Shown: in pieces, positions 11,320-35,875 of the stretch
Layout of the letters: each line of letters opens with the position of its first letter
Position numbering within the stretch: position 1 is the first letter of the stretch
NCBI GenBank assembly: GCA_013203625.1
Contig: JABMPX010000002.1
Location: forward strand, 1 to 41,038
Reading direction: 5' to 3'
DNA from: Parcubacteria group bacterium
GTDB taxonomy: Bacteria > Patescibacteriota > Minisyncoccia > Portnoybacterales > UBA2143
DNA length: 41,038 nucleotides
Position numbers and translations under genes: made by a program
The notes under the pieces: model-generated
Told to the model about the DNA's origin: nothing
Seen by the model: the letters and a program-made list of their open reading frames with translations, nothing else
Databases searched by the model: none

Positions 11320-11381
11320 CAAGGACAGTCCTTAAAATGACATCCTTGTGCATAAGGATGTAATTTTAAGGACTGTCCTTG
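11320..11381. repeat. 62-bp nested palindromic element, copy 1
   Basis: CAAGGACAGTCCTTAAAATGACATCCTTGTGCATAAGGATGTAATTTTAAGGACTGTCCTTG; exact reverse complement of 13109-13170. Confidence 0.97.
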
Positions 11382-11386
11382 CAATA

Positions 11387-13099
11387 TCATCCTATTTCTT
11401 TATTGTAGCATGCTTCGCAATAAATAATCTCTTTTCTGTCTGGGGCGTATGTTGTTTGGAAGGTAGTATTGCATCCTTTGTTCATACATTGCCTTTCCCA
11501 TAGTTTCATTGGATTTCTTTGTTTAATCCGTTCTCTATGTCTGCAATCAGGGCAGAGTCGTGGCAAAGAAAAGTTCATCTTTTTATAGAATTTTAGTTCT
11601 GTTGGAATTAGACGGAATACTCCTGAGCCAGCGCAGTCATCAGAAGAACATTGTATTACTTCTTTTAATATAGAGTTATCTACATCTTTTATGCTGTCTG
11701 GAAGGTTTTTTGCTTTAATTGTTGGTTTATATTCGCTTTTAGGTTTGTCATGCCATGTATATCCTTGGTCTATTGCTTGTTGTTTGGTTAAGGGGAAGTA
11801 TTCATTGGCTATTGTTTCATTGTAGGCAAAAGGACTTAATTCAACAGGGAAGAATTCTCCATACTTGTATACTCTGCCATTTTTATCAACATAGGGCATC
11901 TTGTTCATGTGTTCTTTGATTTTAGGAACTAATTCTTCATATTGTTCTTTTGTGTATTGCTTGTTTAGGATGCAGTATTGCTTGTGACGGAGGCCTACGC
12001 ATGCGAAGAGGTTGGAGGAGGAGTGACAGGAAAGACAGTATTCCATATCTCGACAATTTGGCCAACAGTTAAAACAGAAACTTAATTGATTAAGGCCATT
12101 CCCCAAAAGAACGCCTTCATAGATTAGACTAGCTTTTTCTCCCCAACAATAATAATCGTAGCAATCTTGAGTTATGTCCCATATGAGATGGCAATACCTT
12201 AAATTTTCTCCTTTTTTAACTAAATATGAATCTTTAACATTTTTAGAATTATCAATATACTCACCAAACACGTTAACATTCTTACGGCCATGCATGTATT
12301 TAACCGGGAATTTTAAATGAAGTTGTTTGGTTTTATTGTTCAATTCTTGAATGCTTTTATAGGAACCTGTGTTAAACTCTTCAAGTTTTTTGAAATATTC
12401 TTCTTTAGCATACGACTTGTTAAAAATATGATACTTTTTGTGTCTCAAATTTGCACAGCCAAAACAATTAGAACAATTAATGCAATCTTTACAAAAATAA
12501 ATCTCTTGACAGTCCGTACAATGGGAAGAAAAAAATGTTTTATAGCAATTGTTTAGCATAAATCCCTCATAACAAAGCTCTGATCTCCTAAGGTGATGAT
12601 TATCATAACAATTATTGGAACGATCAATGCCATTACCATAAGCACAGTTCTCGGAATGGCCGGCAAAAAACAAAAGATAGCAGTTTTTTAAAAAGGAGGC
12701 TTGCATAGAATAATCACTATTAACTAATCCACTTGACATACGACTAGCCCAAGGCACCTCTCTGCTCAATTTTTTAATCTGTTTTAGGAACGACTTGTTA
12801 AAATCATAATCATGACCATATTTTAAAGGATCCCATTTATCTGACCACCAAATTTCCTGATCATAGATTTTAATCGGCGCTTCTGGAGAAAAAACAGAAA
12901 AGGTTTTCTTCTTGGAAAAATCGCATTTCCTCTTATACAAATTTGTCTCATTCTGAAAAGCAAACCTCCTCTGCATCCTACAATCTGGACAAAAGGTTGG
13001 TTCTGGCACGTCTATCTTCTTGTAAAATTCAAAGTCCTCCGGTTCTATAGTGAACTTGGCTTTGCAGTTTTGGCATATTTTTGTTTTAGATTGAGTCAT
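11387..13099 (-). CDS. Cys-rich zinc-ribbon protein of a type common in Parcubacteria; function unknown
   Basis: Duplicated N- and C-terminal FYKK...CPDCR modules, two internal Cys-periodic modules each ending LRHK.Y.I.NK.Y.KE.Y, and terminal YCEACY; start reassigned to ATG 13099. Confidence 0.8.
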   Translation of the reverse strand: MTQSKTKICQNCKAKFTIEPEDFEFYKKIDVPEPTFCPDCRMQRRFAFQNETNLYKRKCDFSKKKTFSVFSPEAPIKIYDQEIWWSDKWDPLKYGHDYDFNKSFLKQIKKLSREVPWASRMSSGLVNSDYSMQASFLKNCYLLFFAGHSENCAYGNGIDRSNNCYDNHHLRRSELCYEGFMLNNCYKTFFSSHCTDCQEIYFCKDCINCSNCFGCANLRHKKYHIFNKSYAKEEYFKKLEEFNTGSYKSIQELNNKTKQLHLKFPVKYMHGRKNVNVFGEYIDNSKNVKDSYLVKKGENLRYCHLIWDITQDCYDYYCWGEKASLIYEGVLLGNGLNQLSFCFNCWPNCRDMEYCLSCHSSSNLFACVGLRHKQYCILNKQYTKEQYEELVPKIKEHMNKMPYVDKNGRVYKYGEFFPVELSPFAYNETIANEYFPLTKQQAIDQGYTWHDKPKSEYKPTIKAKNLPDSIKDVDNSILKEVIQCSSDDCAGSGVFRLIPTELKFYKKMNFSLPRLCPDCRHRERIKQRNPMKLWERQCMNKGCNTTFQTTYAPDRKEIIYCEACYNKEIG

Positions 13100-13108
13100 G
13101 ATTTGAGT

Positions 13109-13170
13109 CAAGGACAGTCCTTAAAATTACATCCTTATGCACAAGGATGTCATTTTAAGGACTGTCCTTG
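13109..13170. repeat. 62-bp nested palindromic element, copy 2
   Basis: CAAGGACAGTCCTTAAAATTACATCCTTATGCACAAGGATGTCATTTTAAGGACTGTCCTTG. Confidence 0.97.
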
Positions 13171-13179
13171 TGCATATCC

Positions 13180-13209
13180 AGTATACCTTATAAATCGCTT
13201 TGTTTTCAA
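13180..13209 (-). promoter_or_regulatory. sigma70-type promoter reading into repeat copy 2, the Cys-rich gene and possibly recO-glyS
   Basis: TTGAAA-18 bp-TATACT on the minus strand. Confidence 0.6.
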
Positions 13210-13233
13210 GAATAAAAACAATGATTGTCTATC

Positions 13234-13262
13234 TTGACTAAATTTCAATAAAGAAGTAATAT
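13234..13262 (+). promoter_or_regulatory. sigma70-type promoter for the 380-aa orphan
   Basis: TTGACT-17 bp-TAATAT. Confidence 0.6.
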
Positions 13263-13375
13263 CCCAGATATAGTTCATTTACATTTGGTTTGGCAGAAAT
13301 TTAAGGATTTCTTCCAAGGTTCTTTCCTTAAGAGGAAAGAGAAACAAAAACAGCTAAGGCTATGGGAGGTGTATT

Positions 13376-14518
13376 ATGAAAAGGAAAGAAAAAGAAACAT
13401 TTCTGGAAAGTCGTCCTCAACACGATAACTTTGAATATCTGTTGGCTAACCAGTTTCTCACTGAAGCATCAGATGAAGGGAAAATCAAAAAACTCAAAAA
13501 AGTTTTTGGGTTGGCCGTTGAATATCGCAATGATGAGGCAGCTTTAAAATTATTAACCCTTATAGATAAGGCGATTTACGAAAAGGAGAGAAGAATTGCT
13601 GAAGGACCTGGTGGCGACGGCCATCTTGGTAGAGCGTATGGACGGGCAAAAAGACAGTTGTACGATTACCTGATGGAAATGTATTGGCAATTACCGGACA
13701 TGAAACCCGACCGTCACGATTGTCGTGACATAATGTGTCCGACAATGCTCCAGACAAAATTCTGGATTCTGGAAGAGGTTATTCTCAATTGGCAACCTGA
13801 AGAACAAGGAGCCGTCAGAACATTTCAATTTCTGATTGCTGCTTATGAACCTCTGTCAAAAGACTGGCAAACTCCTGTAGAAAACGCCGAATTCAAAATA
13901 AAATCCAAAGGACGATGGGTTTCTCAGGAGGAAAGAGGTGAAATTTTAAAGCTAATCCGGAGACAGAACACCAGATTCAAATCAGGAGAGATTGAAAAAT
14001 GGATAAAACAACCTTGGATCCCTCATGAATTTGAAAAAATTTTAGCTATTGCCCGAACCCGCAATGGTGGACCAAAATTATGGCAAGATGACATTCGTAA
14101 CGCTGAACTACTTAAATTATTTTCTCCAGACGAACGAACTGAAGCAGCTATTAATCTTTTCCAACGAGAATGCAAAATCATTGCTGAAATTGACCAAAAA
14201 GTCCAGAAGCTTATTAACCAAATGACATCTGAAGATTATTCAGGAAGAGAAGAAATCGGTGGTTCTGAATACGTCCTTGGCAAGAGAGGAATAATCTACA
14301 ATACCATTTTCGAGATTATAATCCATATTAAACTAAGGCCTGATTGTCCAGAAGCTCTGGTTCGTGACAATTTTGGCCGAGCCAAACGACATATTAAAAA
14401 ATGGCTGAAAGAAAATCATTTTCGTAAAGTAACTCTTAACATGCGTATAGAGGGAACAGATTTTAAGTTAAATGGAGAATTTTATGGAGATCATCATCAT
14501 TTAGCTAAAAAAGGTTGA
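13376..14518 (+). CDS. Hypothetical protein, 380 aa
   Basis: Long ORF with strong SD GGGAGGTG, its own promoter and terminator; no recognised motif. Confidence 0.8.
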   Translation: MKRKEKETFLESRPQHDNFEYLLANQFLTEASDEGKIKKLKKVFGLAVEYRNDEAALKLLTLIDKAIYEKERRIAEGPGGDGHLGRAYGRAKRQLYDYLMEMYWQLPDMKPDRHDCRDIMCPTMLQTKFWILEEVILNWQPEEQGAVRTFQFLIAAYEPLSKDWQTPVENAEFKIKSKGRWVSQEERGEILKLIRRQNTRFKSGEIEKWIKQPWIPHEFEKILAIARTRNGGPKLWQDDIRNAELLKLFSPDERTEAAINLFQRECKIIAEIDQKVQKLINQMTSEDYSGREEIGGSEYVLGKRGIIYNTIFEIIIHIKLRPDCPEALVRDNFGRAKRHIKKWLKENHFRKVTLNMRIEGTDFKLNGEFYGDHHHLAKKG

Positions 14519-14526
14519 TATTAAAA

Positions 14527-14567
14527 CCCCGTTGGACTGAAACTAGTCTAACGGGGATTTTTTATTT
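14527..14567 (+). terminator. Intrinsic terminator
   Basis: CCCCGTTGGACT-GAAACT-AGTCTAACGGGG followed by ATTTTTTATTT. Confidence 0.8.
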
Positions 14568-14579
14568 CTTAAAACCAAT

Positions 14580-14608
14580 TTGCCAGAAGCATAAAAAAAA
14601 TATATACT
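14580..14608 (+). promoter_or_regulatory. sigma70-type promoter for dnaE-thrS
   Basis: TTGCCA-17 bp-TATACT, with the ATG 11 nt downstream. Confidence 0.65.
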
Positions 14609-14619
14609 GGAAACAACCT

Positions 14620-17600
14620 ATGAAATTTACTCATTTACATGTTCACTCTCATTATTCCCTATTAGACGGTCTAGCTAAAATAGACCAGCTTTTGGACGCT
14701 TGCCAGGAATTAAAAATGCCTTCTATTGCCTTAACTGACCATGGTTCAATGTATGGATTGGTTGAGTTTTATAAAAAAGCTAAAAAAAGAGGAATCAGGC
14801 CTATTATAGGATGTGAAGCATATGTTGCTTTTGAGGATATGCATCAGAAAAGACCTAATATTGATAATAAGCGTTATCATTTAGTTCTTTTAGTTAAAAA
14901 CGAAGAAGGATATCGAAATTTGGTTAAATTAACTACAAAGGCCTATTTAGAAGGCTTTTACTACAAGCCAAGAATTGATAAGGAATTATTAAAAAAACAT
15001 GCCAAGGGCTTAATTGGATTATCTGCTTGCATTGCTGGTGAAATACCTAGAGCTATTATTTCTGGCAAAATAGATCAAGCAGAGAAATTAACCTTGGAAT
15101 ATCAAGAAATTTTTGGCAAGGGCAATTTCTATTTAGAAATCCAGCATCATTCTAATTTACTAGAACAAAAACAAGTTAATGATGCTTTAATTAAAATTGC
15201 TAAAAAACACAAAGTTCCTTTAATCGCAACAAATGATGTTCATTATGTTAAGCCAGAAGACGCAGAAGCTCAAGATGTTCTAATGAGCATTCAAATTGAC
15301 AAGCGTTTATCTGACCAAGACCGCATAACTATGAAATCTAATGATTTTTCTCTTAGGCCAACAGAACAAATGATTAAAGATTTCAAAGATGTGCCTGAAG
15401 CAATTGAGAATACCCAGAAAATTGTTGAAAAATGCAATTTTGAATTTGAATTAGATAAAATTCAATTACCCTCTTTTGAGGTCCCTAATGGGCAAACACC
15501 TGATGAGTATTTAGAAAGTTTATGTAAAAAAGGATTGGAAAAAATAAGATTTGAAGCTTCTTCTAAAGAAGTTTTAGATAGATTGAATTATGAATTAGAT
15601 GTTATTAAAAAAACTGGTTATGCTTCTTACTTTCTTATCGTGCAAGATTTTATCAATTGGGCTAAATCCAAAAATATTGTTTGCGGTCCAGGGAGAGGAA
15701 GCGCAGCCGGATCAATAGTCTCGTATCTTATTGGCGTCACTGCTGTTGATCCGCTTAAGTATAATTTGCTTTTTGAGCGTTTTTTAAACCCAGAACGCAT
15801 CTCTATGCCTGATATTGATCTGGACTTTGCTGATGATCGCCGCGATGAAGTAATTGAATATGTGGCAAAAAAATATGGCCAAGGACACGTTGCTCAAATT
15901 ATCACTTTCGGAACTATGGCTGCTCGAGCTGCTGTCCGTGATGTAGGCCGAGTGCTTGATTATTCATACAGTTTCTGCGACCAAATAGCTAAAGCAATTC
16001 CTCTTGGTTCAACTTTAGAAAAAGCTATTTATGAATCACAAGAACTGCATAGTAGCTACGAATCAGATGATAACACTAAACGGCTAATTGACATGGCTAT
16101 GAAATTAGAAGGCGTAGTTCGCCATGCTTCCACTCACGCTTGCGGAGTTGTTATTACTAAAGAACTACTTGATGAATTAGTTCCCTGCCAATATCCTACC
16201 CAAAACGACGAATCCATTGTTACTCAATATGAAATGCACTCTATTGAAGATTTAGGCCTTTTAAAAATGGACTTTCTTGGTTTAAAAACTTTAACAGTTA
16301 TTCAAAATACTCTTAATCAGATAAAAGAATACAATAAACAAGAAATTGATTTAGCTAATATTCCCTTAGATGATAAAAAAACATTTAGCTTATTCCAACA
16401 AGCAAATAGCACGGGCGTATTCCAATTAGAATCAAATGGAATGAAGAGATACCTCAAACAATTAAAGCCAACTCAATTTGAAGATATTATTGCTATGGTT
16501 GCTTTATACAGGCCTGGCCCAATGGAATTTATTCCAGAATTCATTGCCCGAAAACATGGTCTTAAGCAAATCGAATATCTCCATCCTTTACTTAAACCGA
16601 TTTTAGAAAACACTTACGGTGTAATGGTTTATCAAGAACAGCTTATGCGTATTGCCAGAGATCTAGCTGGCTTTACTCTTTCAGAAGCTGATGTTCTTAG
16701 AAAAGCAGTTGGCAAGAAAATCAAAAAACTTCTGGATGAACAGGAAGAAAGAATGGTTAAAGGAATGATTAATAATGATATTGAATCAAAAATAGCTAAA
16801 AAAATCTGGAAAACTATTGAGCCATTTGCCCAATATGGATTTAATGCCAGCCATGCTACATGTTACGCTTTAATTGGATACCAAACTGCTTATCTTAAGG
16901 CGCACTTTCCAACTGAATTTATGGCCGCTACTATGACTTCTGAGCAAAATGATATTGAAAGAATCGCATTTTTGGTTAATGAATGCCAACAAATGAATAT
17001 TAAAGTTTTACCGCCTGATATTAATGAAAGCAACCAGAATTTCAGCAGAATAGATGAAAAAATAATTCGTTTTGGACTTAAAGCAATAAAAAATGTTGGA
17101 GAAAATATAGTTCAAAGTATTGTTCAAGAAAGAAAAAATAATGGTCCATATCAATCAATTACTGATTTTATTGAAAGAGTTGAATCTAAAGATTTAAATA
17201 AAAAATCGCTGGAAAGCTTAACTAAATGCGGAGCTTTAGATGTTTTTGGCGAAAGAAATCAAATTTTAACCGCTATGGAGCAAATACTTAATCTGGCTAG
17301 AGAAATCCAAAAAGCTAAAGAAAACGGCCAAGTAAGCCTATTTGCCGGACAACCAGATATTGAAGCTTCTTCCTTTAAATTGCCGAAAGTCATTCCAGCT
17401 GATAAAAAAGAGCGGCTTAGCTGGGAAAAAGAACTGCTTGGCCTTTATGTCTCCGAACACCCTTTTAAAAATTACGAAAAACGTTTGGCTAAAATAGCTA
17501 CTTCCTGCCGTAATCTTTCTAAAAATCAAGTTGGTCAACGAGTCAAAATTGGAGGATTCATTAATAAAATTAGAAAAATTAATACGAGAACCGGCCATCC

Positions 17601-17781
17601 AATGCTTTTTGTTGAGATAGAAGATACTACTGGACGAATAGAAGCTTTGGTTTTCCCTAATACGCTTGAACGAACATCTATGTCATGGCAAGAAGAAAAA
17701 ATTGTTTTGGTTGGCGGTCGTCTAAGTGATCGTGATGGCAACTTGAAAATACTCTGCGATAGTGTTAAAGTATTGAAGTAA
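14620..17781 (+). CDS. dnaE: DNA polymerase III alpha subunit
   Basis: FTHLHVHSHYSLLDG PHP domain, GRGSAAGS, PDIDLDF, KMDFLGL; start reassigned to ATG 14620. Confidence 0.98.
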   Translation: MKFTHLHVHSHYSLLDGLAKIDQLLDACQELKMPSIALTDHGSMYGLVEFYKKAKKRGIRPIIGCEAYVAFEDMHQKRPNIDNKRYHLVLLVKNEEGYRNLVKLTTKAYLEGFYYKPRIDKELLKKHAKGLIGLSACIAGEIPRAIISGKIDQAEKLTLEYQEIFGKGNFYLEIQHHSNLLEQKQVNDALIKIAKKHKVPLIATNDVHYVKPEDAEAQDVLMSIQIDKRLSDQDRITMKSNDFSLRPTEQMIKDFKDVPEAIENTQKIVEKCNFEFELDKIQLPSFEVPNGQTPDEYLESLCKKGLEKIRFEASSKEVLDRLNYELDVIKKTGYASYFLIVQDFINWAKSKNIVCGPGRGSAAGSIVSYLIGVTAVDPLKYNLLFERFLNPERISMPDIDLDFADDRRDEVIEYVAKKYGQGHVAQIITFGTMAARAAVRDVGRVLDYSYSFCDQIAKAIPLGSTLEKAIYESQELHSSYESDDNTKRLIDMAMKLEGVVRHASTHACGVVITKELLDELVPCQYPTQNDESIVTQYEMHSIEDLGLLKMDFLGLKTLTVIQNTLNQIKEYNKQEIDLANIPLDDKKTFSLFQQANSTGVFQLESNGMKRYLKQLKPTQFEDIIAMVALYRPGPMEFIPEFIARKHGLKQIEYLHPLLKPILENTYGVMVYQEQLMRIARDLAGFTLSEADVLRKAVGKKIKKLLDEQEERMVKGMINNDIESKIAKKIWKTIEPFAQYGFNASHATCYALIGYQTAYLKAHFPTEFMAATMTSEQNDIERIAFLVNECQQMNIKVLPPDINESNQNFSRIDEKIIRFGLKAIKNVGENIVQSIVQERKNNGPYQSITDFIERVESKDLNKKSLESLTKCGALDVFGERNQILTAMEQILNLAREIQKAKENGQVSLFAGQPDIEASSFKLPKVIPADKKERLSWEKELLGLYVSEHPFKNYEKRLAKIATSCRNLSKNQVGQRVKIGGFINKIRKINTRTGHPMLFVEIEDTTGRIEALVFPNTLERTSMSWQEEKIVLVGGRLSDRDGNLKILCDSVKVLK

Positions 17782-17783
17782 AT

Positions 17784-19538
17784 ATGTCTAAAAAAGAAGG
17801 GTTACAATTAGAAAAAATACGTCATTCTTTGTCACACTTGATGAGCATGGCAATTATTAAAATATATCCTGATGCTGGCCTGGGGGTTGGACCAGCTATA
17901 GAAAATGGTTTTTACCAGGACTATGGCCTGCCCGAATCTATTTCGTCAGAATTATTACCTAAGTTAGAGAAAGAAATCAAAAAAATGATCCTGAAGAATA
18001 TTAAGTTTGAACAGCATGACATGAGTTTTGACAAGGCCTTAAAGTTATATAAAAAAGATCCGTATAAGAGCGAAATGATAAAAGACTTAAAAAAGGCGGG
18101 TGAAAAGAAGCTAAGCTTTTACAGGTCTGATTGGTTTGAGAACTTATGCAAGGGCCCACACGTTGCATCTACTAAGGAGATTGATCCTGATGCTTTCAAA
18201 CTGACCAAAGTAGCTGGCGCTTACTGGAAAGGCGATGAAAAAAACAAAATGCTTCAGAGAGTTTATGGAGTAGCTTTTGAAACAAAAAAAGAATTATATC
18301 AATATCTAAAACAACAAGCTGAAGCTGAAAAAAGAGACCATCGGAAAATAGGAAAGGAATTAGATCTTTTTGTTTTCTCTGACTTAATTGGCAAAGGATT
18401 GCCTCTTTTAACACCTAAGGGTTCGATAATTAGACAAGAACTAGAAAAATTCATTACTGAAGAAGAAACTAAAAGAGGATATTTACGTGTTTATACTCCT
18501 GATTTAGCAAGATTAGAATTGTATAAGAAATCAGGTCACTGGCAGCATTACAAAGAAAGCATGTATCCATTAATTAATGTTGATGGCGAAGATTATGTTC
18601 TCCGGCCAATGGCTTGTCCTCATCATTTCATGTTATACAATTCACGTCCTAGAAGTTATCGAGAACTTCCTTTAAGATACGCTGAAATTGCTAGACAATA
18701 CAGAAAAGAACAATCAGGAGAACTATCCGGACTTATTAGATTAATGGCTTTCTCTTTAGTTGATGCTCATCTTGTTTGCAGACCAGATCAAATTGAAAAG
18801 GAATTTAAAGATGTTTTAGAATTAATTCAGTATAATATGAAAATTTTAGGCATTAAAGATTATTGGTATCGTTTTTCAAAATGGGATCCTAAGAATAAAA
18901 AGAAATATACTAATAATCCAAAAGCATGGCAGAAAACTGAAAAGTTAATGAAAGAGATATTAGACAAATTAAAACTTAAATATGTTGAAGCTGAAGATGA
19001 AGCTGCCTTTTATGGCCCAAAAACAGATGTTCAAGTTAAAAATGTTAATGGCAAAGAAGATACTCTTTTCACTGTCCAAATCGACTTTGACATGCCTGGA
19101 AAATTTGATATGAGCTATATAGATGAAAAAGGCAAAAAACAAACACCTATGGTGATTCATCGAGCTTCTATTGGATGCATAGAACGGACCATGGCTTTCT
19201 TGATTGAACAATATGCTGGCGCTATGCCAGTCTGGCTATCTCCAGTACAAGCTCAGATTATTCCAATTAGCGAAAAATTCATTAAATACGGCGAGAAAAT
19301 AAAAGAAATGCTTTTAAAAGAGGATGTTCGGGTTGAATTGAATAATGACAATGAAACTTTGGGCAAGAAAATTCGCGAGGGTGAAATGCAAAAAATCCCC
19401 TACCTTTTAATAGTAGGAGAAAAAGAACAAAAAGCTGGATCAGTTGCTGTTAGAGATAGGGAAAAAGGCGATCTCGGCCCTATGAAAACAAACAAGTTTA
19501 TTGAAAAAATTAAGGAAGAGATAGAGAAGAAAATTTAA
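17784..19538 (+). CDS. thrS: Threonine--tRNA ligase (lacks the N-terminal TGS domain)
   Basis: RHSLSH, LCKGPHV, GAYWKG, RDHRKIG, RPMACPHH, AFYGPK. Confidence 0.97.
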   Translation: MSKKEGLQLEKIRHSLSHLMSMAIIKIYPDAGLGVGPAIENGFYQDYGLPESISSELLPKLEKEIKKMILKNIKFEQHDMSFDKALKLYKKDPYKSEMIKDLKKAGEKKLSFYRSDWFENLCKGPHVASTKEIDPDAFKLTKVAGAYWKGDEKNKMLQRVYGVAFETKKELYQYLKQQAEAEKRDHRKIGKELDLFVFSDLIGKGLPLLTPKGSIIRQELEKFITEEETKRGYLRVYTPDLARLELYKKSGHWQHYKESMYPLINVDGEDYVLRPMACPHHFMLYNSRPRSYRELPLRYAEIARQYRKEQSGELSGLIRLMAFSLVDAHLVCRPDQIEKEFKDVLELIQYNMKILGIKDYWYRFSKWDPKNKKKYTNNPKAWQKTEKLMKEILDKLKLKYVEAEDEAAFYGPKTDVQVKNVNGKEDTLFTVQIDFDMPGKFDMSYIDEKGKKQTPMVIHRASIGCIERTMAFLIEQYAGAMPVWLSPVQAQIIPISEKFIKYGEKIKEMLLKEDVRVELNNDNETLGKKIREGEMQKIPYLLIVGEKEQKAGSVAVRDREKGDLGPMKTNKFIEKIKEEIEKKI

Positions 19539-19541
19539 TTT

Positions 19542-20288
19542 TTACTCTGTCAGCACTCTCGGTCCCTTATTAGTTACTGCTATAGTATGCTCAAAATGGG
19601 CTGATAAGCTATTGTCAGCTGTTTGAAAACAAGATCCATCAGGGCCTTTTTTTATTCCTGGCTGACCCATAACAGCCATTGGCTCAATAGCTAAAACCAT
19701 ACCTGCTTCTAATTTTAAGCCTTTATGCCGCTGTCCGAAATTAAGTATTTCTGGTGATTCGTGAAGCTGTTGTCCAATACCATGGCCACAAAGTTCTTTT
19801 ACTATTTGAAAACCCTGTGACTCAACATATGTCTGAATCGCATGGCCTACATCACCAATAGTCTTGCCTGGCTTGACTCTATTAATAGCTCTTTTAAGAG
19901 CTTTTTTTGTTACTCTAATTAAACGTCCTGCTTCTGGAGAAATAGCTCCTATTGGCACAGTAACAGCCATGTCCGAGCAAAAACCATTATAAATAATTCC
20001 TAAATCCAAACTTAAAATATCACCCTCAATCAATTTCCTTTCACAAGGCGCAGCATGGACAACTTGTTCATTAATTGAAGTACACAAAGCAGCAGGAAAT
20101 CCCTTATAGCCCTTAAAAGCTGGTTTAGCTCCAGAATCAAAAATAAGCTCTTCAGCGAGCTTATTTAAACTTTGTGTAGTAATACCTGGCTTAATCCCGC
20201 TTTTCAATTCTCTCATAATTCGAGACAGAATCTGACCAGCTTGAGCCATTATTTCAATTTGCTCTGGGGTTTTTATTGGTGTAGACAT
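19542..20288 (-). CDS. map: Methionine aminopeptidase type I
   Basis: SINEQVVH, DILSLD, GHGIG..LHE, AIEPM, AHFEHT. Confidence 0.97.
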   Translation of the reverse strand: MSTPIKTPEQIEIMAQAGQILSRIMRELKSGIKPGITTQSLNKLAEELIFDSGAKPAFKGYKGFPAALCTSINEQVVHAAPCERKLIEGDILSLDLGIIYNGFCSDMAVTVPIGAISPEAGRLIRVTKKALKRAINRVKPGKTIGDVGHAIQTYVESQGFQIVKELCGHGIGQQLHESPEILNFGQRHKGLKLEAGMVLAIEPMAVMGQPGIKKGPDGSCFQTADNSLSAHFEHTIAVTNKGPRVLTE

Positions 20289-26896: not shown

Positions 26897-26898
26897 AA

Positions 26899-27555
26899 TT
26901 ATTTATCAAATACTTCTCCCTTGTAAATCCAGACCTTTACGCCAACTGTTCCGTAAGCAGTATAGGCAGTTGCTTGAGCATAGTCAATATCAGAACGCAG
27001 GGTTTGCAAAGGAACTCTTCCTTTTTTCAACCATTCTTTTCTGGCAATCTCAGCGCCATTTAATCTCCCGCCAACCATTATCTTGGCTCCTTCAACGTTC
27101 TTATTCTGAATAATTTTATCTAAAGATTGTTTCATCACCCGGCGATAAGGCATTCGTCTTTCTAATTGGCCTGCTATTTCCATAGCCATAACCAAGGCTC
27201 GAGCTGTTGGTTCTCCAACTTCCTCTATTTCTAAACGAACTTCCAAATTGGCTGTTTCTGTCTTGTCTTTTTTAATAATTGCTTTTATTTCTTTCTTAAG
27301 CTCTTCTGCTCCGCTTCCTCCCCTTCCAATAATTAAACCTGGCCGAGATGTTTCAATAATAATATTAATAGCATTAACTGATCGTTCTATTTTTATTAAA
27401 TTAATTCCAGCCTTATCTAATTTTTTCGTAATAAAATCCCGCAATTTTACATCTTGCTCTAAAAAATTTCTATATCTCTTTCGACTAAACCATTTTGATT
27501 TCCAGTCAGTAACTATGCCTAATCGAAAAATGTATGGATGAACTTTATGTCCCAT
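26899..27555 (-). CDS. rpsC: 30S ribosomal protein uS3
   Basis: [23 protein letters not shown]. Confidence 0.98.
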
Positions 27556-27568
27556 GAAATTTTAATAA

Positions 27569-28159
27569 TTAAATGCTTTTTCTCCTAAAAACCTTTTTAG
27601 CGTTGCCAAAAGTCTGCCTGCTGAAAAACTTTTTCTTTGATTGAGAAGTTGTTTGATATGGCTTAGGGGGCAAAACTTTTTTCGGCCTTGAAATAATTTT
27701 TTCATCTTCTCCTGTTTTTTCTACTGGCTGGCTGATTTCCTCTAATAAATCATGTTTTTTTTCTTCTTTAGCAGTTGATTTAATCTGATCTTTGGATGGT
27801 TCTTTTTTGATTTCTTTCTTAATTTCCTTATTAATTTGATCCAAAACTATAGTCAAATGGCTGGTTCTTTTCATTATTGAAGAAGCTCGGCCCATTGCTC
27901 GAGGACGCCATCGCTTTAGTGTTGGGGCAATATCAACAAAAATTTCAGCAATATAGAGATTATTTTTCTCTAAATCAGCGTTATGCTTAGCATTAGCTAC
28001 TGCTGAATTTAAAAGCTTTAAAACATGCTTGGCTGACCTTTTTGTTAAAAATTTTAACTGTTTCTCAGCCTCTCCTACGGTTAATCCCTTAATTAGATTA
28101 GCTGTTAATCTAATTTTTCGAGGAGATATCCTTAAATGTCTTAATTTGGCTGTAATCAT
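27569..28159 (-). CDS. rplV: 50S ribosomal protein uL22 with a long C-terminal extension
   Basis: RISPRK, SAVANA, RPRAMGRA; ~85 extra C-terminal residues. Confidence 0.96.
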   Translation of the reverse strand: MITAKLRHLRISPRKIRLTANLIKGLTVGEAEKQLKFLTKRSAKHVLKLLNSAVANAKHNADLEKNNLYIAEIFVDIAPTLKRWRPRAMGRASSIMKRTSHLTIVLDQINKEIKKEIKKEPSKDQIKSTAKEEKKHDLLEEISQPVEKTGEDEKIISRPKKVLPPKPYQTTSQSKKKFFSRQTFGNAKKVFRRKSI

Positions 28160-28170
28160 AAATTTATTGC

Positions 28171-28470
28171 TTATTTGCCTTTTTGCCTAGCAGATGTTTC
28201 CTGCTCTTTTTGCATTTTACCGCCGTGTCTAATAAATTTTCTTGTTGGAGAAAATTCACCTAATTTATGGCCAACCATATCTTCTGTAATAAAAACTGAA
28301 ATATGATCTTTCCCATTATGAACGCCAAAAGTAAAACCGACCATTTCCGGAGTAATTGTGCATGCTCGAGCCCATGTTTTAATTATTGTTTTATCCCCCA
28401 ATTTTAACTTAGCTATTTTCTTTAATAGCTTATCATCAACATATGGGCCTTTTTTTAAACTTCGTGACAT
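28171..28470 (-). CDS. rpsS: 30S ribosomal protein uS19
   Basis: [17 protein letters not shown]. Confidence 0.98.
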
Positions 28471-28489
28471 AATTTAATAAATTACTTTA

Positions 28490-29332
28490 TTATTTTCTTT
28501 TTTTCTTTGCTCTTCTTTTTAAAATTAATTTACTACTTGCTTTTTTCTTTTTTCTTGTCTTTACTCCATAAGCCAATTTCCCCCAAGGAGTTTTTGGCCC
28601 TCTTCTTAAACCAATTGACTGGCGGTTTTCTCCTCCGCCATGCGGATGATCGCAAGCATTCATTGCTGAACCGCGCACTGTTGGCCGACGGCCCATCCAA
28701 CGGCTCCGACCAGCCTTGCCAATAACTACTGCGCCATGCTCTAAATTACTTATTTGCCCAAGACTAGCAAGACAGTTCTCTTTAACCATTCTTATCTCCC
28801 CAGAAGGCAATTTAAGGTGTGTATAGCCGCCTTCATGAGCCATTGCTTGAGCGCTACTGCCAGCTGAACGGACTATTTGTCCGCCTCGATTAGGAAAAAG
28901 TTCAATGTTATATACAAAACTGCCAGGCAAAATATTCTTTAATTGCATTCTATTGCCAATCTTTAATTTTGCTTTTTCCTGACAAATAACTTCATCGCCA
29001 ATTTTAATGCCATCAGGAGCTAAAACATATCTTTTTTCTCCATCTAAATAGTTCAAAAGAGCTATAAAACAGCTTCTATTAGGATCGTACTCTAATGAAG
29101 CCACCTTAGCTGGAACACCCATCTTATCACAGCGTTTGAAATCAATCAATCTATATTTCCGCTTATGTCCGCCGCCTTTATGCCTTACTGTGATTCTGCC
29201 GCGATAACCTCTTCCAGCTTTTTCAACTAATTTTTTAGTTAATTTTTTAGCTGGCTTAGTTTTAGTTAAGACAGAATAATCAACTGAAGTCATTCCTCTT
29301 CTGCCTGGCGTAGTTGGTTTATAACGTTTCAT
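28490..29332 (-). CDS. rplB: 50S ribosomal protein uL2
   Basis: EYDPNR, RSAG, DHPHGGG. Confidence 0.98.
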
Positions 29333-29339
29333 ATTAATT

Positions 29340-29777
29340 TTATCTAGGCAATAATTCTATTTTCTCCCCTTTTTCTAAAGTCACAATCGCCTTTTTAAAT
29401 CCCTTTTTTAATCCATGCCGCCATCCCTGGCTTTTGCCTAGGCGCCTTCTCTTTGAAGGCATGTGAATCATACTCACTTTCTTTACTTTCACCCCATAAA
29501 GAGATTCTATGGCTTTTTTTGTTTCTGTTTTGTTGGCTTTTGGAGAAACTTTAAAAATATATTTATCTTGTTCTGTTAAGAGAGTTGCTTTTTCAGTAAT
29601 ATGCGGCTCTCTAATAACTTGATAAATTCGCGGTGTTTGCTTGCCAATGATTTTTCTTGGCAATACTTCCTCTTTTGGCTTCTCTTTTTCAACCTTTTTC
29701 TCTACTTTTTCTTTTGTTTTCCCGCCAGCAGCGGGTTCGCCTTTGGCGAATTTTCTAAATTTATCTAATAAAGACAT
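29340..29777 (-). CDS. rplW: 50S ribosomal protein uL23 with an N-terminal extension
   Basis: PHITEKA, ANK, KKAIVTL. Confidence 0.95.
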
Positions 29778-29787
29778 GGTTTTAAAA

Positions 29788-30432
29788 TTATTTTAAATAG
29801 GTTTTCTCAATCACTTTAATTGAATCTTGTAAAATTAATAGATATTGATGCGTTAAAATGTCTAAAACATTTAAACTGTCTGCTCTGATCGTCTTTGTTT
29901 TAGGAATATTTTTGACTGATTGGCTAATTTTCAAATCTGTTTTAGGCAAAACAATTAAAACGCTTTTATTTAAATTCTTTTTGAGTTTTGTTTTTAAATC
30001 ATTAATTATTTCAACCATTAATTTAGTTTTTCTTTTTGTTAATTCTATATTGTCTAATAAAATTATCTCTTTATCTTTTAATTTAGAAGACAAAGTCATT
30101 AATAAAGCTTTTTGCTTCATTTTTTTATTAATTTTCTTACTAAAATTCCTATCTTTGGTTGGCCCAAAAGTTACTCCGCCGCCCCGCCAAATTGGAGAAC
30201 GAATAGAACCATGTCTTGCTCTGCCAGTTCCTTTTTGCCTCCATGGCTTGCGGCCTCCGCCGCGTTTTTCACTCCTGTCTTTAGTATGGGCTATGACCTT
30301 TCGCGAATTAGCCATCTGAGCAACAACTGCTTGATGGACCAAATCCTGATTCATCTTCACGCCAAAAATTTCAGCCGGCAATTTGGCTTTTCCTGTTTCC
30401 TCGCCTTTTTGATTGTATATCTTAATAAGCAT
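29788..30432 (-). CDS. rplD: 50S ribosomal protein uL4
   Basis: GGGRKPWRQKGTGRARHGS. Confidence 0.98.
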   Translation of the reverse strand: MLIKIYNQKGEETGKAKLPAEIFGVKMNQDLVHQAVVAQMANSRKVIAHTKDRSEKRGGGRKPWRQKGTGRARHGSIRSPIWRGGGVTFGPTKDRNFSKKINKKMKQKALLMTLSSKLKDKEIILLDNIELTKRKTKLMVEIINDLKTKLKKNLNKSVLIVLPKTDLKISQSVKNIPKTKTIRADSLNVLDILTHQYLLILQDSIKVIEKTYLK

Positions 30433-30435
30433 AAT

Positions 30436-30454
30436 ATTTTAAGGACTGTCCTTG
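30436..30454. repeat. Single 19-bp arm of the 62-bp element, overlapping the rplC stop
   Basis: ATTTTAAGGACTGTCCTTG, identical to the terminal arm of copies 1 and 2. Confidence 0.9.
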
Positions 30455-31143
30455 ATTTCTTTCTTCCCGGCTTTTTTCTTCTGAGCGTCTGCTTCTTGCT
30501 TTTCTAAATCAGCCATTAGTTTTTCTTCTTTCTCTTCTTTAACAGCTTTAATCTCTTTAGTGACTACTATTTCTAAAAGAGTTCCTTTTCTGCCTGGAAT
30601 TGCTCCTTTAATAGCTATTAAGTTGTTTTCTTTATCTATATCAGCTATTTTCAGTCCTTGAACAACTATTCTATCGTTTCCCATGCGACCAGCCATTTTT
30701 CTTCCTTTTACAACTCTTTCTGGAAAAGCCGAGCCAATTGAACCAGGCGCCCTTTCAGTATGTTTAGTCCCATGAGATGCTGGCATGCCGGCAAATCCAT
30801 GCCGCTTTACCACTCCTTGGAATCCCTTGCCTTTAGAAATGCCTGTTACTTTAACTACTTCACCTGGATTAAATAAAGAAACATTAATTTCATCATTGAT
30901 TTTTAAATCATTTTTCGGAAACTCTTTTAAATAACGGAAAGCTTTGCCTTTCTGCGATTTTTTTATTCTCTTCTCCTTTATTTCTTCAAAGCCAATCTGA
31001 ACAGCAGAATAGCCGTCTTTTTCTTTAGTTTTTATTTGGAGAACAAAACAAGGCCCAGCCTCAATTAAAGTTACTGGGACAACTCGGCCATCTTGATTAA
31101 AAACTTGAGTCATTCCTATTTTTTTTCCTAAAATAAATTTCAT
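30439..31143 (-). CDS. rplC: 50S ribosomal protein uL3
   Basis: GKKIGMTQ, KGKGFQG, PGSIG; charged tail ending KDSP. Confidence 0.98.
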   Translation of the reverse strand: MKFILGKKIGMTQVFNQDGRVVPVTLIEAGPCFVLQIKTKEKDGYSAVQIGFEEIKEKRIKKSQKGKAFRYLKEFPKNDLKINDEINVSLFNPGEVVKVTGISKGKGFQGVVKRHGFAGMPASHGTKHTERAPGSIGSAFPERVVKGRKMAGRMGNDRIVVQGLKIADIDKENNLIAIKGAIPGRKGTLLEIVVTKEIKAVKEEKEEKLMADLEKQEADAQKKKAGKKEIKDSP

Positions 31144-31162
31144 AAAAGTTAATTTGCCAATA

Positions 31163-31189
31163 AAATACCGGGCATTAAACCCGGTATTT
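31163..31189 (-). terminator. Perfect 10-bp hairpin between rpsJ and rplC (terminator/attenuator-like)
   Basis: AAATACCGGG-CATTAAA-CCCGGTATTT; U-rich 3' side on the minus strand. Confidence 0.55.
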
Positions 31190-31226
31190 GATAAGGGATA
31201 TTGCCGAAATAATTAATTAGAAATAA

Positions 31227-31559
31227 TCATATTGTTTTTATTTCAATATCAACACCAGCTGGCAATGTTAAACCCATTAAAGCGTCTATAATTTTTGGGC
31301 CAGGACTGATAATATCAATTAATCGCTTATGAACCCTCATTTCATACTGTTCTCGCGAATCTTTATGGACAAAACTGGAACGATTAATCGTATATTTATG
31401 AATTTCTGTTGGTAAGGGAACCGGACCGCAAATTTTAGCGCCATAACGATCAACCGCCTCAACAATTTGCTTTACTGATTGGTCAATAAGCTTATGATCG
31501 TATGCTTGAATTTTGATACGGATCTTCTGTTTGACTTCCTTTTCTTTTTTAGGTGCCAT
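31227..31559 (-). CDS. rpsJ: 30S ribosomal protein uS10
   Basis: KIRIK..AYDH, GPVPLPT, SREQ.E.R.HKRLIDI. Confidence 0.98.
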
Positions 31560-31579
31560 TGTTAATTAATTCAAAATAA

Positions 31580-32779
31580 TTATTTTATTATTTTAGTCAC
31601 TACTCCAGCGCCAACTGTTTTGCCGCCTTCTCTAAGAGCAAATCTTTGCTTGTTTTCCAAAGCAACTGGAGTTACTAATTTAATTTTTAAATTAACTGTA
31701 TCTCCAGGCATAACCATTTCAGTCCCTTCGGGTAAAGAAACATCTCCAGTAACATCACTCGTTCTAATGAAAAATTGAGGCTTGTACCCGCTAAAGAAAG
31801 GTGTGTGACGTCCGCCTTCTTCTTTGCTTAAGATATATACCTCGCCTTCAAATTCTTGATGAGGAGTAACACTTCCTGGTTTAGTCAAAACCTGACCTCT
31901 TTCAATGTCTTCTCTTTTAGTGCCTCTTAAAAGAATTCCAGTATTATCTCCAGCCTGTCCTTCATCAAGTGATTTATTAAACATTTCTATGCCAGTTACT
32001 ACTGTTTTCTGAGTATCTTTAACGCCAATAATTTCAACTTCATCATTGATCTTAATCTTGCCACGTTCAATTCTTCCAGTAGCAACAGTTCCTCGCCCTT
32101 CTATAGAGAAAACATCCTCAATTGGCATTAAGAAAGGTTCGTCAACTGCTCGAACTGGCTCAGGTATGCTTTCATCAACAGCTTTCATTAACTGCATAAT
32201 TGGTCCGCATTTAGGACAATCTTCTTTGCCGCATCCGCATTCTACAGCCTGTAAAGCAGAACCTCGGATAATAGGAATTTTATCTCCTTCAAATTCATAC
32301 TTGCTTAAAAGTTCTCTAATTTCCTGCTCAACCAAATCAATTAATTCAGAATCATCAACCTGATCAACCTTGTTTAAAAATACAACTAAAGCTGGCAAGC
32401 CAACTTGGCGAGCTAAAAGAATATGTTCTCGCGTTTGAGGCATTGGACCATCTGAAGCAGAAACCACTAAGATTCCTCCATCCATCTGGGCTGCCCCAGT
32501 AATCATATTTTTAATATAGTCAGCATGTCCTGGACAATCAATATGAGCATAATGACGTTTTTCTGTCTCGTACTCAACATGAGCCACAGCAATGGTCAAG
32601 CCACGGGCTTTTTCTTCAGGCGCGTTATCAATATCATCAACGCCTTTATCCTGAGACTTAAAACCAGCTGCTTTTAAACATTTTAAAATAGCCGCTGTTA
32701 ATGTGGTTTTACCATGGTCAACATGACCAATAGTTCCTACATTAAGATGTGGCTTAGTTCTTTCAAATTTCTCAGCCAT
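31580..32779 (-). CDS. tuf: Elongation factor Tu
   Basis: [18 protein letters not shown]; start reassigned to ATG 32779 (MAEKFERTK). Confidence 0.99.
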
Positions 32780-32894
32780 AATAACTATGGGCAATAAACA
32801 ATGGATAACGAACAACAAAAAATAATTGGTCGCTATTAAATGTTTTTACCTTTAATTAACTTATTTTAAATTTTATATGCTTTATGTAAATATA

Positions 32895-32923
32895 AGTTTA
32901 CAAAACATCCTCCACTTAGTCAA
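32895..32923 (-). promoter_or_regulatory. Internal sigma70-type promoter for tuf and the S10 cluster
   Basis: TTGACT-17 bp-TAAACT. Confidence 0.6.
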
Positions 32924-32945
32924 TACCCTGTATCTTTATATTAGC

Positions 32946-33167
32946 TTAAAAAGGCAGATCTTCTACTTTGACCGCTTGATTATCTGTTTCAGTTTCAGGA
33001 ACTTCAATTTGTTTATCCTCTTTTTCTTTCCATTCATTAATGTCTTTATTAACTTCTTCTACTTCATCATCTATTTTCATTACCAAATAAGTCGGTTCAT
33101 TCTCTTCTATTATAATACACTTTCCGCCTTGTTTTTGCAAGATTTTTTTAATAGTTTTCCACAACAT
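32946..33167 (-). CDS. Small protein, 73 aa: Phd/YefM-like N-terminal pattern with an acidic tail ending EDLPF
   Basis: Co-oriented ORF filling the fusA-tuf gap, with a protein-like composition. Confidence 0.75.
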   Translation of the reverse strand: MLWKTIKKILQKQGGKCIIIEENEPTYLVMKIDDEVEEVNKDINEWKEKEDKQIEVPETETDNQAVKVEDLPF

Positions 33168-33195
33168 AATAATTAATAATTTAAAATTTAAAATT

Positions 33196-35322
33196 TTATT
33201 TCTCTTCTCCTATAATCTTCTCTGCCACATTTTTTGGCACTTCAGCATAATGGCCAAATTCCATTGTAAAATTAGCTCGTCCTTGAGTTATTGACCTTAG
33301 CTGTGTTGCATAGCCAAACATGCCAGATAAAGGAACTTGTGCATTAATAACTTTAACTTTATTCATTTCTTCTCCTCTATCTTCCATTTCTTCAATTTTC
33401 CCACGTTTTGAACTTAAATCGCCGATAACATCTCCCATAAATTGTTCTGGAGTAATCACTTGCAGTTTCATAATTGGTTCTAAGAGAATTGGATTAGCTT
33501 GTTTAAATGCTTTCTGCAGAGCAATTGAACCAGCGATTTTAAAAGCTGATTCAGAGGAATCCACATCATGGAAAGATCCGTCATAAAGAGTTGTTTTAAT
33601 ATCGACCACTGGGTACCCAGCTAGAATACCTTTGCTCATTGCCTCTTTAATTCCTTTTTCCACAGCTGGAATGTATTCCTGCGGGATAACTCCTCCTTTA
33701 ATCGCATCAACAAATTCAAATCCTTTGCCTTGTTCCTGTGATTCAACTCGCAGCCAAACATGGCCGTATTGGCCGCGTCCGCCGCTCTGCTTAATATATT
33801 TTCCTTCAGCTTCTGCTGTATCCTTAATTGTTTCTTTATAAGCCACTTGCGGCTGGCCAATGTTCGCTTCTACTTTAAATTCTCTTAACATCCGATCAAC
33901 AAGAACTTCTAAATGCAGTTCTCCCATGCCGGAAATAATTGTTTGTCCTGTTTCTAAGTCTCCCTTGATTTTAAAAGTAGGATCTTCTTCAGCCAGTCGT
34001 TTCAAAGCCAAGCCCATTTTTTCCTGGTCAGCTTTTGTTTTTGGCTCAATAGCAATAGAAATAACTGGTTCTGGAAAAATTATTTTTTCTAAAATAACTG
34101 GATAATCTGGATCAGTTAAGGTATCGCCAGTAGTTGTGCTTTTTAACCCAACTACTGCAACAATATCACCAGCATAAATTTCTTTAATTTCTTCTCGCTT
34201 ATTAGAATGCATTCTTAAAACTCTGCCAACTCTCTCTTTATCCCCTGTACTTGAATTCAAAACATATGAACCGCTTGCTAAGGTACCAGAGTATAATCTT
34301 AAATAAGCCAATTGACCAACAAAAGGATCAGTAGCTACTTTAAAAACTAAAGCGGAAAACGATTCATCATCTTTACTTTCTTTGATTATTTTTTTTGTTT
34401 CGTCTTTTGGATCAAATCCTTGTACAGGAGGCATGTCAATTGGAGACGGCAAATAATCAATAACAGCATCTAATAAAAGCTGAATGCCTTTATTCTTTAA
34501 AGCAGAACCGCAGAAAACAGGAACTAGTTTATAATCAATAACTGCTTTGCGCAAAACTCGTCTTAAATCCTCTTCTTTAATTTCTTTATCATTTAAGTAC
34601 GCTTCTGTCAACTTCTCGTCCTGTTCAGCAATTTTCTCAATTAATTTTTCCCTATAATCCTTACTCTGTTTTTTTAATTCTTCAGGAATTTCTTCTTCAG
34701 TCATGTCTTGGCCATAGTCACCAGCAAATTTATACGCTTTCATTTTAATTAAATCAATTACTCCTTCATGCTTGTCTTCTAATCCAATAGGAATTTGCAT
34801 GGCTATTGCTTTTGGAGTTAGCCGTTCCCAGATTGATTTCAAGCTCGTTTCAAAATTAGCGCCGGTCCTGTCTAATTTATTAATAAGACAGATACGAGGC
34901 ACTTTGAATTTATCTGCCTGATGCCAAACTGTTTCTGATTGCGGTTCTACTCCAGCTACTCCGTCAAAAACAACTACTGCCCCGTCAAGAACCCTTAAGG
35001 AACGCTGGACTTCAACCGTGAAATCAATATGGCCAGGCGTATCAATTATATTAATCTTATGTTCATTCTCTTTGTTAGTCTCTTTAGATAAATATCCCCT
35101 AGGAGTCCAAAAACAAGTTGTGGCTGCAGAAGTAATAGTAATTCCTCGTTCTCTTTCTTGTTCCATCCAGTCCATAATTGCTTCTCCTTCGTGAACTTCG
35201 CCGATTTTATGAGAGATTCCAGTATAAAAAAGAACCCGTTCAGTTACGGTTGTTTTACCGGCGTCTATATGGGCAATAATGCCAATATCTCTTATTTTTT
35301 CAATAGGATACTCTCGTGCCAT
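33196..35322 (-). CDS. fusA: Elongation factor G
   Basis: [26 protein letters not shown]. Confidence 0.99.
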
Positions 35323-35331
35323 ATAATTAAA

Positions 35332-35802
35332 TTACCAAGAAAAGTGAGCAAAGGCTTTATTAGCGTCAGCCATTCTATGCGTATCTTCTTTTTTCTTTAC
35401 GGCTTCGCCTGTGTTTTTAGAAGCATTAAGCAATTCCTCAGCAAGTTTTTGAGCCATTGGCTTTCCTTTTTTTGACCTTGCAATCTGAATAATCCACCGT
35501 ATGGCTAAAGTGGTCTTTCTATCGCCACGCACTTCGCGAGGTATTTGATAATGGGCTCCTCCAACTCTCCGTGATTTCACTTCTACTAATGGAGAAACAT
35601 TTTTGATTGCTTGATCAAACACTTCTAAGGGATCTTTCCCTTTTACAGATTTCTCTATTATTTTAAAAGCATCATAAAATACTCTTTGAGCAACTGATTT
35701 TTTTCCGTCTTTTAATAAATAGTTAATAAACTTAGCAACTAAAGTGCTATTATATTTAGTATCTGGGATAATTGTCTTTTTTATTTTTCTTTTTCTACGC
35801 AT
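35332..35802 (-). CDS. rpsG: 30S ribosomal protein uS7
   Basis: EVKSRRVGGA.YQ, MADANKAFAH. Confidence 0.98.
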   Translation of the reverse strand: MRRKRKIKKTIIPDTKYNSTLVAKFINYLLKDGKKSVAQRVFYDAFKIIEKSVKGKDPLEVFDQAIKNVSPLVEVKSRRVGGAHYQIPREVRGDRKTTLAIRWIIQIARSKKGKPMAQKLAEELLNASKNTGEAVKKKEDTHRMADANKAFAHFSW

Positions 35803-35813
35803 AGTATTAGTTT

Positions 35814-35875
35814 AAAGGACAGTCCTTAAAATTACGTCCTTATTCACAAGGACGTCATTTTAAGGACTGTCCTTT
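35814..35875. repeat. 62-bp nested palindromic element, copy 3, overlapping the rpsL stop
   Basis: AAAGGACAGTCCTTAAAATTACGTCCTTATTCACAAGGACGTCATTTTAAGGACTGTCCTTT; 57/62 identical to copy 2. Confidence 0.95.

Follow-up and report, generated by a model that had tools for sequence, protein, structure and literature searches.

The closest described relatives of the repeat reported here are the repetitive extragenic palindromic (REP) sequences and their REP-associated tyrosine transposases (RAYTs), such as the REPs and bacterial interspersed mosaic elements (BIMEs) of Escherichia coli with the enzyme TnpA-REP and the REPINs of Pseudomonas (PMC3116915). The parts of the literature on which we draw describe doublet hairpins, single-copy enzyme genes flanked by repeats, several subtypes per genome and some intragenic copies (PMC6006769, PMC8266576, PMC3733652), and they name a bulge in the REP stem as a requirement of the E. 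coli enzyme (PMC8266576). A second group, named after terminal inverted repeats (TIRs), comprises the TIRtrons and the enzyme TIRYT (Di Nocera et al. 2013, PMC3733652), which has been equated with subclass 2.1 of the TnpA-Y1 proteins (PMC6006769) and whose flanking repeats have the consensus GGGGWSAS (PMC3733652). In the relevant portions of Quentin et al. (2018, PMC6006769), Y1 genes of such kind favour large genomes and no REP-like structures are recorded near the genes of TnpA-Y1 subclass 2.1. Here, we describe a 60-nt hairpin repeat in a 41,038-nt stretch of DNA from a Parcubacteria group bacterium (GenBank assembly GCA_013203625.1, contig JABMPX010000002.1; hereafter the window). The window is contig 18 of a 470-kb genome in 22 contigs that is 88.9% complete (G000). 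We argue that the repeat is probably a non-autonomous element that belongs with the REP/REPIN or TIR-type hairpin repeats.

The features that this element has in common with the REPIN/REP-RAYT systems, as far as the sources above describe them, are short palindromic units paired in inverted orientation into one long hairpin, tens of mostly intergenic copies, several subtypes per genome with some intragenic copies and, here in relatives, a single-copy Y1 HUH gene flanked by the repeats. It differs from REPs in that each arm is a perfect 13-nt palindrome, which is also found alone or in tandem, and from the REP-RAYT systems in that its hosts have genomes of 0.5-0.7 Mb and that the enzyme gene of the host itself is not in the assembly. 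The type of element is a known one; the unusual part is its ultra-small host. A literature search whose coverage stopped short of subscription journals found no paper on RAYT, REPIN or REP systems in Patescibacteria, Parcubacteria or the candidate phyla radiation.

Structure of the repeat

The element is made of two inverted halves. In each, a 13-mer arm that is its own palindrome (AAGGACWGTCCTT) is joined by a 5-nt A/T linker to one side of an inner stem of 8-9 bp. When either strand is single-stranded, both halves together form one hairpin of 27-28 bp. A preliminary description of this DNA, made from the letters of the sequence, had given the element a length of 62 nt, which is the 60-nt core with a flanking pair added, A-T in copy 3 and C-G in the other two. 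It had placed three full copies and one arm in the window, and both inspection of the window and folding bear out these places:

11321-11380 (62 nt including the flanking C-G pair, 11320-11381): copy 1, a full A-type element that takes up the whole spacer between the gene of a 574-aa Cys-rich protein and recO; 87.8 bits with the covariance model R1 (described below)
13110-13169: copy 2, a full A-type element in a divergent spacer, 10 nt upstream of the ATG of the 574-aa gene; supported by its fold and an R1 match
35815-35874: copy 3, a full A-type element in the spacer between rpsL (ribosomal protein S12) and rpsG (S7), giving S12 its last four codons (KDSP) and a TAA stop
30441-30453: solo arm, one 13-mer with an AAAAT linker back to 30436, between rplC (L3) and rplD (L4), giving L3 the residues KDSP and a stop

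All four sites are at boundaries of minus-strand genes. Orientation relative to transcription varies: the T-half leads in copy 1, the G-half in the other two. Whichever strand is folded, every full copy gives 19 pairs, then a single unpaired position, a further 8-9 pairs and a loop of 4-6 nt, which is the nested palindrome initially proposed (a 19-bp outer stem, a mismatch, an inner stem and a short loop). The folding energies of -41 to -42 kcal/mol (z from -9.5 to -12) were not equalled by any of 200 shuffles. The 13-mer occurs seven times in the window, against 0.92 expected, a number reached in none of 100 shuffles, and all seven occurrences are exact in a search that tolerated up to two mismatches. 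Copies 2 and 3 differ at five positions. Reading the sequences gives the same result as before: four of these positions make two compensatory pairs and the fifth is a loop base.

Copies and covariation

The search for further copies proposed at the outset found many, both in G000 and in its relatives. There are 27 exact arms in G000, which belong to nine full copies with both arms exact, one full copy with a decayed arm, and eight solo arms; the A type thus amounts to ten full copies and eight solo arms. Two additional full copies, of a B type, have the same 60-nt layout with different letters in the arm (AAGGTCAGACCTT), linker and inner stem. From these 12 full copies, and from them solely, we built the covariance model R1, with which up to 133 candidates were scored per genome. 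In G000 it has 28 matches over both strands, i.e. 14 elements.

In the alignment of the 12 full copies, 96.9% of the cells are paired and 11 of 27 pairs have changed on both sides, values as high as these being found in none of 500 shuffles; slid controls of the same alignment gave 32-51% of paired cells. A larger alignment comprises 60 of the 66 copies collected, from 11 genomes; left out were a short G006 copy and five from G002 that duplicated retained rows. Here 95.3% of cells are paired and 20 of 25 pairs have changed on both sides (0 of 500 shuffles). Hence, the covariation noticed between window copies holds in both the smaller and the larger alignment.

The stem mismatch had been described as conserved, and this is only partly so. 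None of the three window copies has this position (G/T against A/C) paired. Of the 12 full copies of G000, only seven have it unpaired, and among the 48 copies of the 60-copy set that lack an extra column, taken from several genomes, it is paired in 38, so the mismatch is local and not a feature of the family. All four combinations of G/T with A/C occur in G000, as if the two halves assorted independently at this position alone. The adjacent A/G-T/C pair is complementary in all ten A-type copies.

Distribution among relatives

The exact 13-mer is present in 11 of 24 sister genomes of the host's family; 16 genomes that represent six further families of the order all lack it. The reversed pattern, used as a control, occurs once in one genome (G039) and nowhere else. 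Among the candidates scored, R1 matches 17 of the 24 genomes of the family and none of nine genomes of another family (f6). Match counts over both strands reach at least 119 in G006, a 0.7-Mb genome with at least 60 doublets, and at least 93 in G002. The latter genome has at least seven identical copies of an imperfect, asymmetric version of the element, all with the same mismatches. Identity extending to common imperfections argues for the copying of a master copy and against convergence. In other genera, the arm is found alone, in tandem runs at 14-15 nt spacing, or enclosing other inner stems in a nested arrangement. In G016 (contig C19, 9810-9852 and 10915-10957), two runs of three 13-mers in tandem bracket a segment of about 1 kb with tRNA-like sequence.

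The behaviour of the 13-mer as a separate unit, conserved across genera and present alone or in tandem arrays, might suggest an operator. In such a scenario the perfect 13-bp palindrome (6-1-6) would be a duplex site for a dimeric regulator or a nucleoid protein and the 60-mer a cluster of sites, in line with the position of several copies 8-16 nt upstream of start codons. We regard this as very unlikely. The letters of the arm change by compensation between genomes and subtypes (A, B, C and GGGGGCAGCCCCC) under a constant layout, and the inner stem covaries too. Copies are found between co-transcribed ribosomal protein genes and inside open reading frames (ORFs), their presence or absence differs among congeners, and no candidate regulator was identified.

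Occupied and empty sites

Comparing filled and empty orthologous sites, another check put forward with the preliminary description, revealed insertion polymorphism among relatives. In 12 of 23 genomes, the S12-S7 spacer measures 2-24 nt. The element occupies it in the three genomes of the host's genus (G000, G001 and G002), G011 has a solo 13-mer there, and G004, G006, G012 and G032 have palindromes that are unrelated as judged by eye. The L3-L4 junction is empty in G001 and G010 and carries a different inverted-repeat element in G002. That unrelated element, in the L3-L4 spacer on contig C11 of G002, is about 170 nt long and has 27-nt inverted ends. Upstream of recO, there is no element in G001 and G010, and the site is filled in G002. 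Finally, at the spacer C14:6926 the genes overlap in G010, which is empty, and the spacer is occupied by an A-type copy in G000, a C-type copy (AAGGCCGTGCCTT) in G001 and a composite in G002.

Some copies are found inside genes. A full B-type copy lies in frame within tsaD (G000:C7:22060-22119), a full A-type copy in frame within a gene of the WecG/TagA family of glycosyltransferases (G000:C14:9747-9806), and a solo B arm within a GT1 glycosyltransferase gene. The 60 nt of the element correspond to 20 codons, and in the variant with a G-C linker one frame is free of stops; the arm can be read as K-D-S-P-stop in one of its frames. The same loop of the essential gene tsaD has different in-frame hairpins in four of the five genomes compared (G000, G001, G002 and G014, with none in G006). 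It is either an insertion hot spot or a place where one subtype has replaced another. The WecG/TagA orthologue of G001 is split over two contig ends exactly at the arms.

Ten of the 12 full copies of G000 (A and B) are in, or overlap, spacers transcribed with their neighbours, the other two being inside genes. The full copies have long stems of high stability (-41 to -50 kcal/mol), different hairpins were gained in the S12-S7 spacer in several lineages, and E. coli REPs affect mRNA stability according to the portion of PMC6006769 that treats them. One might thus speculate that the host selects an RNA hairpin at gene boundaries, for 3'-end protection, RNase III-type processing, attenuation or uncoupling of cistrons, and that spread is secondary. 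This seems unlikely to us, given that the sites are empty in close relatives with the same genes, that copies lie in frame within tsaD and the WecG-family gene, and that orientation to transcription is not fixed. Furthermore, there is no terminator-like call at any element and no T run after the stem, and no Rfam family matches. An RNA effect that is secondary to spread is possible.

Small size, terminal inverted repeats and many copies are also the marks of an ordinary miniature inverted-repeat transposable element (MITE), i.e. a remnant of a DDE-type insertion sequence, shortened by deletion and mobilised in trans via its terminal inverted repeats. G000 has one rve-family integrase-like gene (a 323-aa ORF) at G000:C19:25594-25935, near a contig end, but neither the motif nor long inverted repeats are found on the flanks of this gene. 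The same genome has no match to PF01609 (DDE_Tnp_1) and none to the TnpB-type PF07282. By eye, no consistent target-site duplication was seen in the inspected flanks of the G000 copies. In relatives it is Y1 genes that the repeats flank, and we find an origin as a MITE most improbable.

The preliminary description had also drawn an analogy with integron attC sites, which, like this element, could be recognised as single strands folded into imperfect hairpins. The context lends it no support. Rather than forming a cassette array, the copies are interspersed with core genes (those of ribosomal protein operons, recO, tsaD), which leaves attC-like recombination sites with a negligible probability; no search aimed at intI was made.

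The candidate enzyme

As already noted in the preliminary description, the window contains no cognate enzyme, and none is present in the incomplete G000 assembly either. The Y1/RAYT gene flanked by the motif that it proposed to look for was found in the genomes of relatives, with the same repeat architecture. PF01797 matches in 17 of the 24 sister genomes, and the Y1 gene, typically of about 200 aa, has a conserved neighbourhood, with a sigma-factor and a beta-helix gene beside it in G001 and G002. It is often on very short contigs or at contig ends, and may for this reason be missing from G000. Four proteins were tested against NCBIfam NF047646 (REP-associated tyrosine transposase): all match (E from about 2e-19 to 1e-23), one of them above the 80-bit cut-off. 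The HUH and Y...NP residues (H61, H63, Y121, N125) do not vary among 19 sequences from relatives. Among solved structures, the best match to the Y1 profile is E. coli TnpA-REP (4ER8, E = 6.7e-5); a search of solved structures with a single enzyme sequence, from G002, gave no match.

We fetched 14 enzyme loci, of which seven had their flanks read and seven were subjected to a motif scan only. Palindromes of the element's layout adjoin the Y1 gene in all seven loci of the former group, with arm letters that are specific to each genome. R1 matches the repeats that touch the Y1 gene or lie within about 40 nt of it in G002 (E = 5.5e-10), G006 (E = 2.6e-6) and G014 (E = 5e-7). In two genera, represented by G005 and G019, the flanking repeats carry a GGACAGTCC core.

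The enzymes have the motifs NH[FIVLY]H, FQ, YIH[FL]NP and WSS, in which they differ from group 2 and 3 RAYTs. We found in addition a second class of Y1 HUH proteins (G002:C6, G006:C1, G009 and G012), of about 230 aa and with the motifs NHYH and YIHLNP. These are flanked by palindromes of their own, e.g. TGAGACGTTGGACGTCTCA and GGAGGT-N3-ACCTCC; in G012, one copy lies inside the Y1 gene itself. The signature of subclass 2.1 (NH[YF]H, FQ, Y[IV]HLNP and an SS motif), as worded in the portion of the literature cited, fits the second class exactly and differs from the first at one residue. Judged by motif comparison, the closest enzyme type appears to be TIRYT, or TnpA-Y1 subclass 2.1, and not the classic RAYTs of GTAG-REPs. 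The repeats were compared with the TIRYT consensus GGGGWSAS as quoted above. One arm of G011 (GGGGACAG) agrees with it at eight of eight positions, those of G019 and G022 at seven, and the A and B arms of G000 at six, the G000 arms matching its GGWSAS core. Self-complementarity, and occurrence in dimers or clusters, is described for some TIR families (PMC3733652, in the part used here); the copy density that we observe is far above that of families termed "moderately abundant" in the same text.

Gene context in the window and assembly support

The genes next to the four sites are as follows:

35860..36354, minus strand: rpsL (ribosomal protein S12), PF00164, E = 2.7e-38; the ORF ends within copy 3, with the tail ...ETKDSP and a stop
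35332..35802, minus strand: rpsG (ribosomal protein S7), PF00177, E = 7e-63; starts 12 nt after copy 3
30439..31143, minus strand: rplC (ribosomal protein L3), PF00297; the ORF ends within the solo arm, with the tail ...KKEIKDSP
29788..30432, minus strand: rplD (ribosomal protein L4), PF00573, E = 1e-63; starts 8 nt after the solo arm
11387..13111 (ATG at 13099), minus strand: gene of a 574-aa Cys-rich zinc-ribbon protein, between copies 1 and 2, from a family of diverged paralogs
10768..11304, minus strand: recO, TIGR00613, E = 5.7e-21; 16 nt downstream of copy 1

According to the ORF list, two further genes, on other contigs, end within an arm. The C-terminal tail of S12 is long, acidic and strongly variable among genomes of the host's family, and distant relatives end near ...GAKKPK. 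The window includes the str, S10 and spc clusters of ribosomal protein genes; at the gathering threshold, Rfam has no match in these 41 kb, and no known ribosomal leader was found.

The 574-aa protein, which lies between two copies, was considered as the cognate enzyme and ruled out. It has no match to a nuclease or transposase family, its paralogs are old copies, its gene is lacking in motif-rich genomes (G005, G011 and G016), and homologues in G001, G010, G014 and G024 have no flanking element. It is a neighbour of the element, not its enzyme. The protein has zinc-ribbon-like ends and belongs to no Pfam or NCBIfam family, a weak treble-clef match excepted. It has at least five diverged paralogs, besides fragments at contig ends, on contigs C11, C17, C19, C5 and C20 of G000; identities of 54-62% indicate that these are old copies. 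Relatives have it in tandem arrays, with four to five copies in G014:C5 and G009:C6. On the other side of copy 2, and divergent from it, is a gene of a 380-aa protein (13376-14518, plus strand) with no Pfam or NCBIfam match.

The region is present in public assembly contigs from a single study (two runs). As the G000 assembly may itself derive from these runs, they provide no independent support. The solo arm is spanned, with 0 differences, by one contig (run X2). At copies 1 and 2 the contigs end and depth rises to 3-5 times the level elsewhere, which is what repeats would produce. The exact placement of copies 1 and 2 relative to the paralogous gene is that given by the assembly.

Discussion

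How might such a hairpin repeat spread? A single-copy HUH/Y1 tyrosine nuclease of the RAYT or TIRYT type would recognise the folded single strand. It would then cut this strand and rejoin it elsewhere, producing new copies by analogy with the IS200/IS605 transposases and E. coli TnpA-REP. The gene of the putative enzyme is flanked by repeats in relatives and absent from the incomplete assembly of G000. Copies persist only where they are tolerated: at stop codons, in short intergenic spacers and in in-frame surface loops of proteins. Effects on mRNA (stability, processing, uncoupling of neighbours) would be secondary.

Yet, a number of observations weigh against a hairpin repeat moved in this way. 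The first concerns the host. The PF01797 profile has no match in the 88.9% of the genome that G000 represents, so that the link with an enzyme rests on relatives. A tblastn search of G000 with the congeners' enzyme and two of its neighbour genes found no matches to any of the three, from which it would seem that the whole syntenic region is unassembled there. In the congeners G001 and G002, moreover, the Y1 gene is flanked by the C-type arm and not by the A-type that dominates in G000. The second concerns the distribution of repeat and enzyme. R1 has matches in five genomes with no PF01797 match (G010, G011, G015, G016 and G017), at least 38 in G011 and at least 27 in G016, and a protein query for the enzyme in these five found nothing. 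Conversely, five genomes have a Y1 match, in one case weak, and no R1 match (G007, G009, G018, G021 and G023). The association between repeat and enzyme across genomes is loose. The third concerns the signals. Both strands fold equally well, and the strand-specific signal that such enzymes need is not singled out. The 5' GT[AG]G tag that REP-RAYT systems have at the foot of the hairpin is missing: GTAG or CTAC is found in none of the 12 aligned copies, CGTC occurs only in the ACGTCC variant (five of ten A-type copies), and the foot of the inner stem reads T[G/T]AC. The enzyme motifs appear nearest to TnpA-Y1 subclass 2.1, the very class near which Quentin et al. (2018), in the portion cited, record no REP-like structures. 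Lastly, shared descent can inflate covariation among copies of a repeat.

The analogy with REPINs and RAYTs made in the preliminary description survives in its essentials, i.e. the copies, the covariation, the polymorphism and the flanked Y1 genes, and needs amending as to the enzyme, which appears nearest to TIRYT or subclass 2.1 and not to the classic GTAG-REP RAYTs. The requirement of the E. coli enzyme for a bulge in the REP stem makes a mismatch-tolerant stem position plausible here, and the one observed in G000 recalls that bulge.

There is another likeness, which we take to be one of behaviour only, ancestry left aside, with the Rickettsia palindromic elements (RPEs): these, too, are hairpin repeats that insert in frame into functional housekeeping genes, in a genome that is very small. 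At about 100-150 nt, RPEs are the longer elements, and they are not known to have an associated transposase.

These results matter in several ways. Work on REP/RAYT systems has been confined almost entirely to Proteobacteria with large genomes. Here, the repeats are dense in genomes of 0.5-0.7 Mb with almost no spacer DNA, which show where repeats survive: at stop codons, in spacers of 2-20 nt and in in-frame protein loops. They are also of concern to annotators of the candidate phyla radiation, as the repeats break assemblies and shift stop codons and gene ends. The natural collection of filled, empty and replaced sites provides material for working out the rules of insertion. More tentatively, and we hold it to be rather doubtful, a Y1 nuclease of the TIRYT type (subclass 2.1) may maintain a vertically inherited, REPIN-like population of multiple subtypes at a density like that of E. 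coli, and the host may have come to depend on the hairpins. The hairpins provide stop codons and the C-termini of the essential proteins S12 and L3, and in this reading they separate genes that formerly overlapped. The recurrent occupation of the same loops and spacers would then suggest either site-specific targeting of the folded repeat or in-place replacement of one subtype by another.

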